Positions 38,687 to 38,812 of a DNA stretch of 64,000 nucleotides are shown here, one piece after another. Every line of letters begins with the position of its first letter. Position 1 is the stretch's first letter. Both the position numbers and the translations under genes were made by a program. The DNA comes from Bacillota bacterium (GTDB lineage: Bacteria; Bacillota; Clostridia; Peptostreptococcales; Anaerovoracaceae), in NCBI GenBank assembly GCA_017416795.1, contig JAFQBD010000014.1, forward strand, positions 8,842 through 72,841, read 5' to 3'. Below the pieces are notes generated by a model that searched no databases, was not told where the DNA came from, and saw only the letters and a program-made list of their open reading frames with translations.

Positions 38687-38777
38687 TTGCAAAATTCAAA
38701 AACCGGGTGTATTATGTTCGAGTAAAGGCAAAGGCGTCTTTAATGTTTATACGTTAAAGGCGCCCTTGTCTTTTTTT
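38687..38777 (+). promoter_or_regulatory. sigmaA promoter plus attenuator leader with an ANTAR-type hairpin
   Basis: TTGCAA (38687), 17 bp, TATTAT (38710). Hairpin AAAGGC-[AAAGGC]-GTCTTT (38724-38741) is alternative to a 20-bp terminator stem (38726-38771) followed by T6. Confidence 0.7.
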
Positions 38778-38812
38778 GATGCAAAAAGGGTGTGAAATAC
38801 GGAGGTTGTAAT

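Follow-up and report, generated by a model that had tools for sequence, protein, structure and literature searches.

A candidate one-hexaloop ANTAR attenuator in the leader of a purA operon from an Anaerovoracaceae bacterium

The purA leader and its operon

The window analysed in this study is a 64,000-nucleotide (nt) stretch of contig JAFQBD010000014.1 (assembly GCA_017416795.1) from a Bacillota bacterium of the family Anaerovoracaceae, and our subject is the leader of its purA operon, a candidate transcription attenuator of the ANTAR type. The whole leader is held in an intergenic gap of 231 nt between a leftward gene for a glutamine synthetase (GS)-like protein (37370–38581) and the rightward purA gene (38813). 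An ANTAR protein is encoded on the far side of the GS-like gene, on the same strand.

A sigma-70-type promoter, which the initial annotation had already assigned to sigmaA, lies ahead of the leader at 38687–38715 (+ strand; −35 element TTGCAA at 38687–38692, a 17-nt spacer, and −10 element TATTAT at 38710–38715). Judged from the position of the promoter, transcription would start at approximately 38721–38724. The sequence UAAAGGC AAAGGC GUCUUUA begins 8 nt past the −10 element and forms a small hairpin of the ANTAR type, which we designate hairpin P (38723–38742, + strand). It consists of a 5′ stem UAAAGGC (38723–38729), a hexaloop AAAGGC (38730–38735) with A1 at 38730 and G4 at 38733, and a 3′ stem GUCUUUA (38736–38742). 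The A1/G4 hexaloop hairpin recognized earlier, AAAGGC-[AAAGGC]-GTCTTT, is thus present and its stem extends to 7 pairs, including one G–U pair; as a 20-nt RNA (UAAAGGCAAAGGCGUCUUUA), it has a folding energy of −5.6 kcal/mol.

Hairpin P lies wholly inside the 5′ arm of an intrinsic terminator (38724–38777, + strand) composed of a 5′ arm (38724–38746), a loop (38747–38750), a 3′ arm (38751–38773), and a T7 run (38771–38777). The terminator helix has 22–23 pairs with one A/C mismatch and an energy of −29.7 to −33.8 kcal/mol. A terminator had been proposed here as a 20-bp stem at 38726–38771 followed by T6; the long stem and T run were borne out, and the length, limits, and T count had to be replaced by those given above. 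The 96-nt leader as a whole folds at −33.8 kcal/mol, compared with an average of −17.5 kcal/mol for shuffled sequences (z = −5.5; 0 of 200 shuffles as stable). The ribosome-binding site (GGAGG, 38801–38805) and ATG (38813) of purA follow (38801–38815, + strand).

The terminator 5′ arm contains all of hairpin P, and therefore the two folds are mutually exclusive. Folding of the alternative structures agreed with the earlier proposal that the small hairpin shares its bases with the terminator 5′ arm upstream of the purA Shine-Dalgarno sequence. In the nascent RNA, hairpin P (−5.6 kcal/mol) is the minimum-energy fold at lengths of 23 to ~35 nt, the 3′ arm then displaces it stepwise, and the terminator (up to −33.8 kcal/mol) forms later. 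When hairpin P is held, the downstream RNA shows no stable stem abutting the U run.

The hexamer AAAGGC occurs three times in the leader, as previously noticed, starting at 38724, 38730, and 38756. At the window rate of 34 copies per 64 kb, such a cluster of three in 38 nt has a Poisson probability of ~1e-6. The third copy, which lies in the terminator 3′ arm, is the complement, with G–U pairing, of GUCUUU in the 5′ arm, and it is not kept in related leaders. The initial annotation had framed the leader as a two-hairpin design with a weak second stem. This framing did not hold: no conserved hexaloop was found upstream or downstream of hairpin P in related leaders, the region of the third AAAGGC forms no stem, and this copy exists because the 3′ arm must pair. 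Between near-identical strains in public runs, the leader differs by a single inserted T in the apical loop (38745–38746) and at no other site, whereas variation does occur in the intergenic DNA around it and at wobble positions of purA.

The operon downstream, purA-purB-guaA-pyrG-asnA-carA (38813–46777, + strand; assigned with Pfam and NCBIfam), comprises purA (38813–40114), purB (to 41528), guaA (to 43075), pyrG (43066–44700), asnA (44697–45671), and carA (45683–46777), all on the + strand. These genes overlap or are at most 14 nt apart, all of them encode enzymes of amination steps, and no terminator-like site was found inside the operon from purA to carA.

Hexaloop match, conservation, and gene linkage

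The published ANTAR hairpins have the loops and closing pairs C[AAUGGC]G, C[AAAGGC]G, and C[AAAGAC]G (hexaloop in brackets), the P2 hairpins of eutA and nasF being AAGCAAAGGCGCUU and GGAUAAAGGCGUCC, respectively (Ramesh 2012 Fig. S1). The Ramesh seed hairpins include GUAUAC[AAUGGC]GUAUAC, GAAGC[AAAGAC]GCUUC, AAGC[AAAGGC]GCUU, and GGAU[AAAGGC]GUCC, and for EutV, A1, G4, and the closing pairs are important (Ramesh et al. 2012, PMC3369931). The element in the window, GGC[AAAGGC]GUC, has a loop and a closing pair equal to those of the eut and nasF ANTAR hairpins. Comparison with the Ramesh definition of an ANTAR target revealed that (i) the hairpin has a hexaloop with A1 and G4; (ii) the stem, for which at least 3 pairs and a conserved closing C–G are expected, has 7 pairs and this closing pair; (iii) both in the window and in relatives, the hairpin shares bases with the 5′ strand of an intrinsic terminator; (iv) an ANTAR protein is encoded in the same genome, 1.4 kb from the motif; and (v) a tandem P1/P2 arrangement with a linker of ~5–12 nt is absent, the dual-hairpin scan of the genome not reporting the purA leader. 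There is also no room for a P1, since at most 8 nt separate the start from hairpin P. The comparison with ANTAR RNA models proposed earlier therefore came out in two ways: the loop and closing pair match the Ramesh seed, and no Rfam model matches. In an Rfam scan of 36000–41000 (E up to 10), the best matches were microRNA models on the long hairpin, with E = 0.09–0.3 and far below gathering scores.

The view that ANTAR dimers bind two hexaloops, on which the initial annotation relied, is outdated. In the EutV–RNA structure the dimer contacts a single hexaloop, and the minimal ANTAR site was redefined accordingly (Walshe et al. 2022, PMC8934654). The same authors called for a search for single-hexaloop targets and for what such targets control. 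Hairpin P agrees with this minimal site, being a single hexaloop hairpin with A1 and G4, the latter being the base that stacks on Tyr164 in EutV. Nor is it unusual that the first hairpin overlaps the terminator, as had been remarked: the single hairpin corresponds to the canonical P2, which is the terminator-overlapping one.

Two scans of the window's own genome were made. The scan for a single C[A.NG..]G hairpin followed by a T run gave 92 hits, among which a long stem and an intergenic position were combined only in the purA leader. The scan for the canonical dual hexaloop plus terminator gave 5 hits, none of them convincing, and the best of these lies on contig C3 before spoVA. At this site (C3:36785–36870), the direct repeat AAAGAGNGCCUUUUGCAU occurs twice, 9 nt apart, and is followed by a terminator-like hairpin before spoVAC-spoVAD-spoVAE; the repeat looks like a forespore-type promoter region.

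For comparison, purA loci were taken from 80 other genomes (homologues at 74–85% identity), mostly of gut and rumen Clostridia and including two spirochaete assemblies; L and G numbers below are labels for related leaders or loci and for genomes. A covariance model was built from 27 motif copies and then applied to the purA loci, to an order-level sample, and to 40 whole genomes. A region of 300 nt upstream of purA, as used for 24 relatives, misses motifs that sit before purC or further upstream.

Approximately 60 copies of (A)AAGGC-AAWGGY-GUCUUU fused to a terminator were found in leaders of other genomes. In many relatives, the promoter is followed by (A)AAGGC-AAWGGY-GUCUUU, next by a helix and loop that vary, and finally by the 3′ arm and the U run, and the promoter in related leaders (TTGACAAA...TATAAT) lies at a matching distance of 6–9 nt from the motif. 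The gene behind a copy is most often that for type III glutamine synthetase (GSIII); gdhA, guaA, pyrG, and the purC and purA operons are also found there. At pur loci, the motif precedes either purA or a purC-purA-purB-guaA operon. Every related leader has a hairpin and U run that share the loop and 3′ stem of P (the U run is broken in L108), and in L037, L058 (L058a), and L096 the terminator shares just the loop and 3′ stem with the hairpin, which is the canonical P2–terminator overlap.

The closing C–G pair and loop positions A1, A2, and G4 are invariant in 33 distinct leaders, and approximately 28 further leaders include one loop exception, GAAGGC. The loop repertoire in relatives comprises AAAGGC, AAUGGC, AAUGGU, AAGGGC, AAAGAC, and AACGGC. 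Covariation was scored on an ungapped alignment of the 20-nt hairpin from the 33 leaders, the MAFFT leader alignment not being structural in the 3′ arms. In this alignment 88.9% of cells are paired, compensatory changes occur at three stem pairs (for example, A–U to C–G in L113 and a G–C/A–U swap in L116), and the covariation score was reached by 0 of 500 shuffles. The 5′ arm is nearly invariant, whereas the 3′ arm is variable, with many G–U pairs and mismatches. The far stronger conservation of the 5′ arm indicates that it is selected for more than pairing.

In tandem leaders, the second motif copies have no promoter, and therefore the motif acts as RNA. No conserved upstream hairpin was found at these promoter-less internal copies. 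Two one-hairpin attenuators in series, ~70–90 nt apart, stand before purC or the GSIII gene in many relatives (L026–L030, L033, and L048; L123/L140, L129/L141, and L132/L148), and the tandem copies form two sequence subclasses, …GUCUUUGAG… and …GUCUUUAAUGUUUA…. The same-genus orthologue L108 (G016:C5:13225–13286) has a hairpin nearly letter-identical to that of the window, a broken U run (GUCUUUAUUAUUG), and a GC-rich stretch of ~310 nt between hairpin and purA; its attenuator may be decaying or working differently. The two spirochaete loci, L060 and L081 (Treponema and Spirochaetales assemblies), have a purA 77% identical to that of the window, the same leader motif, and one ANTAR gene per genome. 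It appears that purA and its switch moved between phyla together or that these contigs were mis-binned.

The motif is also linked to ANTAR genes by position. The genome of the window has one ANTAR gene and, according to the covariance model, one leader motif, 1.4 kb apart; it has no GSIII orthologue, and its gdhA gene is present without the motif. The nucleotide and amination operon is the only target found in this genome, which is its distinguishing feature. The order ANTAR ← GS-like | motif → purC/purA operon recurs in L032, L036, L037, L042, L058, L075, and L086, and synteny between the motif and the GS-like/ANTAR pair is seen in L032, L042, L075, and L086. In the order-level sample of 301 genomes, 107 have ANTAR, including 7 of 7 verified-motif genomes against 100 of 294 others (Fisher P = 6e-4), and in 6 of these 7 the ANTAR gene is 2–10 kb from the motif. 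Of the 40 further genomes with this purA type that were searched in full, 32 have ANTAR, and 17 of these carry the motif, compared with 1 of the 8 genomes lacking ANTAR (P = 0.044). For 12 of the 17, motif and ANTAR gene share a contig and are no more than 20 kb apart, the typical distance being ~7 kb. Altogether, 24 motif-bearing genomes were examined genome-wide, and in 18 of them at most 20 kb separate a motif from the ANTAR gene; this linkage persists though the ANTAR proteins have diverged to 52–70% identity. The genomes behind these statistics are not phylogenetically independent.

The ANTAR protein and its GS-like neighbour

The protein proposed as antiterminator (36761–37354, − strand) has 197 amino acids, is the product of the sole ANTAR gene of this 1.94-Mb genome (68 contigs), and contains an ANTAR domain (Pfam PF03861, 58.5 bits against a cut-off of 27.3) together with a weak receiver match (22.4 bits against a cut-off of 30.2). 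Its alignment with Rv1626 is full-length (E = 1.6e-13), and the protein also aligns with EutV and AmiR. In the ANTAR domain, the residues corresponding to K149 (Lys of the AK motif) and E160, which contact RNA in EutV, are retained and Tyr164 is replaced by His, as in AmiR; by these residues the protein looks able to bind RNA. In the receiver, the phospho-acceptor Asp is replaced by Asn (IIINSP, compared with IMD of Rv1626), a substitution kept in 7 of 7 aligned orthologues, and the acidic pair is replaced by Ser-Ala. The domain thus lacks the phosphorylation site of a working receiver and is a pseudo-receiver of the AmiR type. Because of these substitutions, the regulator would not be kinase-driven, and no kinase gene was found within the ~9 kb examined around it. 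The ANTAR domain here scores lower (50–65 bits) than those of most other ANTAR proteins in the order (70–80 bits), which suggests that the protein belongs to a distinct orthogroup.

The GS-like gene (37370–38581, − strand) is co-directional with the ANTAR gene and lies 15 nt upstream of it. The encoded protein (403 amino acids) has the GS domains and scores below the NCBIfam GlnA cut-off (338.7 against 429). PDB 7TF6–7TFE are among the closest solved GS structures. Alignment to the Gram-positive GS 7tdv revealed that the flap YEAP is changed to DKAP and EESD to SRSD. A second, larger GS-family gene with a normal YEAP lies on genome contig C60 (~46.7–48.6 kb), and therefore the GS-like copy is possibly a sensor rather than a working enzyme. 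The gene order and the precedents of AmiC/AmiR and GS/TnrA suggest that the GS-like protein senses nitrogen status and gates the ANTAR protein.

These precedents differ from the present pair in their partners. AmiR/AmiC of Pseudomonas aeruginosa (PDB 1QO0) shares with it an unphosphorylated pseudo-receiver, His in place of EutV Tyr164, control of a short leader by antitermination (predicted here), and co-transcription of the regulator with the gene of a ligand-binding partner, whose place is taken here by the GS-like gene. By contrast, AmiC is of the periplasmic-binding-protein type and sequesters AmiR, whereas the partner here is a GS homologue and is putative. Bacillus subtilis GS with TnrA and GlnR is a precedent for a GS that passes nitrogen status to a regulator by contact, but it is an active enzyme with DNA-binding MerR-type partners, whereas the partner here would be an RNA-binding ANTAR protein and the ammonium-site residues are altered. 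In Clostridia, the glnA-nitR locus consists of a GS gene and then an ANTAR response-regulator gene, believed to control nitrogen-assimilation genes by antitermination; here, too, the regulator gene comes behind a GS gene. The glnA-nitR locus (Clostridium saccharobutylicum and C. acetobutylicum) and Clo1313_2030 (C. thermocellum) are the nearest described systems; both are mentioned in PMC4676874, whose passage on them names no RNA target, and neither an RNA target nor a purine or pyrimidine link was found described for NitR.

Proposed mechanism and alternative explanations

We propose, with a probability of roughly three in four, that the purA leader is a one-hexaloop ANTAR attenuator in which a non-phosphorylatable ANTAR protein holds hairpin P, blocks the terminator, and turns on purA-purB-guaA-pyrG-asnA-carA according to nitrogen status. 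Transcription would start a few bases before 38724, and the first 20 nt would fold into UAAAGGC[AAAGGC]GUCUUUA. By default the operon would be off: the 3′ arm would displace free hairpin P, and the 23-pair terminator with its U7 run would stop the polymerase at ~38775–38778. An active ANTAR dimer would bind the hexaloop (through A1, G4, and the closing C–G) as it emerges and sequester the 5′ arm, the terminator could then not nucleate, and the six-gene operon would be transcribed. The input would probably be nitrogen status, delivered through the co-transcribed GS-like protein and not through a kinase, in a manner comparable to the control of AmiR by AmiC; our guess is that induction occurs when nitrogen donors are scarce. 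Control by nitrogen supply is expected because aspartate, glutamine, or ammonia is the nitrogen donor for all the operon's enzymes and because the motif of relatives would control GSIII and gdhA genes, and a nitrogen theme has been described for ANTAR regulons (PMC3369931). The sequence and structural features, their conservation, the match to known ANTAR loops, and the gene linkage are observed here; the start site, binding, antitermination, and the signal with its direction are inferred.

A wider reading is more tentative, and we regard it as possible rather than probable. In it, the GS-like protein is a catalytically altered GS that uses glutamine, glutamate, ATP, or 2-oxoglutarate as its signal and directly gates the non-phosphorylatable ANTAR protein in the way that AmiC controls AmiR. 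Acting through a one-hairpin leader that lacks a recruitment hairpin, the pair would serve as the principal nitrogen regulator in many gut Clostridia, here reduced to coordinating the amination steps towards AMP, GMP, CTP, asparagine, and carbamoyl phosphate.

The proposed attenuator resembles the eutP, eutG, eutS, and eutA leaders of Enterococcus faecalis, which are controlled by EutV (PMC3369931, PMC8934654; PDB 6WW6). Both have the A1/G4 hexaloop and the closing C–G, with loops AAAGGC, AAUGGC, and AAAGAC, and in both the hairpin overlaps the 5′ half of the terminator; EutV and the protein described here are alike in size (~200 amino acids) and in domains, each combining a receiver and a coiled coil with an ANTAR domain. 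The differences are that (i) the eut leaders have two required hairpins 5–12 nt apart, whereas this leader has one, from about +2; (ii) EutV is activated through phosphorylation by EutW, whereas the phospho-Asp is Asn here; and (iii) the eut targets serve ethanolamine use, whereas those here are nucleotide and asparagine amination genes. NasR with nasF (Klebsiella) and GnfR (Geobacter) are also ANTAR antiterminators of nitrogen genes, and the nasF P2, with its loop AAAGGC and GUCC, resembles hairpin P. NasR differs in having a NIT sensor domain and a two-hairpin nasF leader, and GnfR in having a phosphorylated receiver.

Several observations weigh against the proposed ANTAR control. The canonical recruitment hairpin is absent, though EutV antitermination in eut requires both hairpins and their spacing (PMC8934654), and a site at the very 5′ end leaves very little time for binding. 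Kinetics is the weak point, given that without a recruitment hairpin binding would have to be completed within ~30 nt of RNA polymerase travel. Covariation in the small hairpin is modest, its sequence being nearly invariant. Among genomes with this purA type, ANTAR is found in 41 of 50 without the motif at the purA locus and in 18 of 22 with it (82% in both); simple co-occurrence of ANTAR and motif was thus non-discriminating and was replaced as a test by a genome-wide motif search combined with the distance to the ANTAR gene. The motif occurs without a detected ANTAR gene in G041, G044, G050, G062, and G363, at least four of which are metagenome assemblies, so that incomplete assembly could explain them. 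Approximately half of the ANTAR-positive whole genomes lack the motif at the threshold used. Public RNA runs, seen as assembled contigs, have a depth that is flat and DNA-like over the intergenic region or that breaks at the hairpin, and they are uninformative on start and termination.

Some of these observations bear on the alternative that survives best, although it is unlikely: that the hairpin is read by a factor other than ANTAR (the GS-like protein, another RNA-binding protein, or a metabolite, as a tiny riboswitch) and that ANTAR is linked merely through nitrogen metabolism. The five motif genomes without a detected ANTAR gene are in line with such a reader, as is the missing second hairpin, which departs from the validated ANTAR design, and the conserved 5′ arm tells only that something reads the hairpin. 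However, the loop and closing pair coincide with those of experimentally validated ANTAR hairpins, the motif is at most 20 kb from the ANTAR gene in 18 of 24 motif genomes, a 20-nt hairpin with a 6-nt loop has little room for a ligand pocket, and no Rfam family matches.

A smaller chance still falls to an unregulated 5′ hairpin with a leaky terminator, which would set a low basal level or stabilize the mRNA 5′ end and would not act as a switch. The terminator is ~24 kcal/mol more stable than the small hairpin, and the U run is degraded in the same-genus orthologue L108, as this explanation would allow. A plain terminator, however, needs no invariant 5′ arm opposite a variable, G–U-rich 3′ arm, and its recurrence before functionally related genes beside one regulator gene would be unexpected.

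AAAGGC-N6-GTCTTT could in principle be a DNA operator, over the start, of a dimeric repressor such as PurR, the terminator being incidental. The sequence AAAGGCAAAGGCGTCTTT is near-palindromic and lies just past the −10 element, the PurBox-like ATGTTCGAG at 38714–38722 overlaps the inferred start, a PurR-type protein is encoded in the genome, and distant relatives have PurBox-like CGAAC around their purA promoters. The idea is very improbable and was rejected: the box ATGTTCGAG is lost in the same-genus L108, and the motif occurs without promoters in the second copies of tandem leaders. Moreover, all copies are fused to a hairpin and U run, the stem changes are compensatory in the RNA sense, including G–U pairs, and the regulon includes the non-purine genes gdhA and that for GSIII.

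Nucleoside triphosphate sensing at the start, by reiterative transcription or start choice as at Bacillus subtilis pyrG, with an ATP/GTP-dependent A-run altering the terminator, is the least probable explanation and was rejected, since, although the terminator begins essentially at +1, the initial transcript is A-rich (UAAAGG), and the operon makes AMP, GMP, and CTP, the motif also occurs in promoter-less internal copies, additional A residues at the 5′ end would lengthen the terminator by pairing with the U run and so not oppose it, gdhA and glutamine synthetase belong to the regulon, and the invariant positions are in the loop and not at the start.

The one-hexaloop ANTAR attenuator thus remains the preferred reading, and the attribution of the leader to the neighbouring ANTAR protein, made by the initial annotation, has strong comparative support from the loop and closing-pair match, the conservation, and the gene linkage, although it is still a predicted pairing. 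The validated ANTAR transcription attenuators are all of the two-hexaloop kind, whereas this leader and its ~60 relatives make up a conserved one-hairpin set at the transcript 5′ end, on which the need for a recruitment hairpin can be tested directly. In the literature, no description was found of a connection between ANTAR and purA, purC, guaA, pyrG, or gdhA. If true, the proposal would bring purine, pyrimidine, and asparagine synthesis under ANTAR control in addition to nitrogen assimilation, and a non-phosphorylatable regulator that is always placed behind a modified GS points to a new nitrogen-sensing route in abundant, poorly studied gut and rumen Clostridia.

Two further observations concern the surroundings of the leader and operon. 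In the more distant relatives L015, L016, L018, and L019, PurBox-like ...ATTCG... and ...GTTCGGA... lie on both sides of the purA promoter; the PurR-type protein of the window's genome is encoded on contig C44. Directly past carA, the region 46828–48485 (+ strand) encodes a LysE/ArgO-type amino-acid exporter and an NAD(P)-dependent diaminopimelate dehydrogenase, an ammonia-incorporating enzyme, and a promoter-like site lies downstream of carA at 47413–47440.

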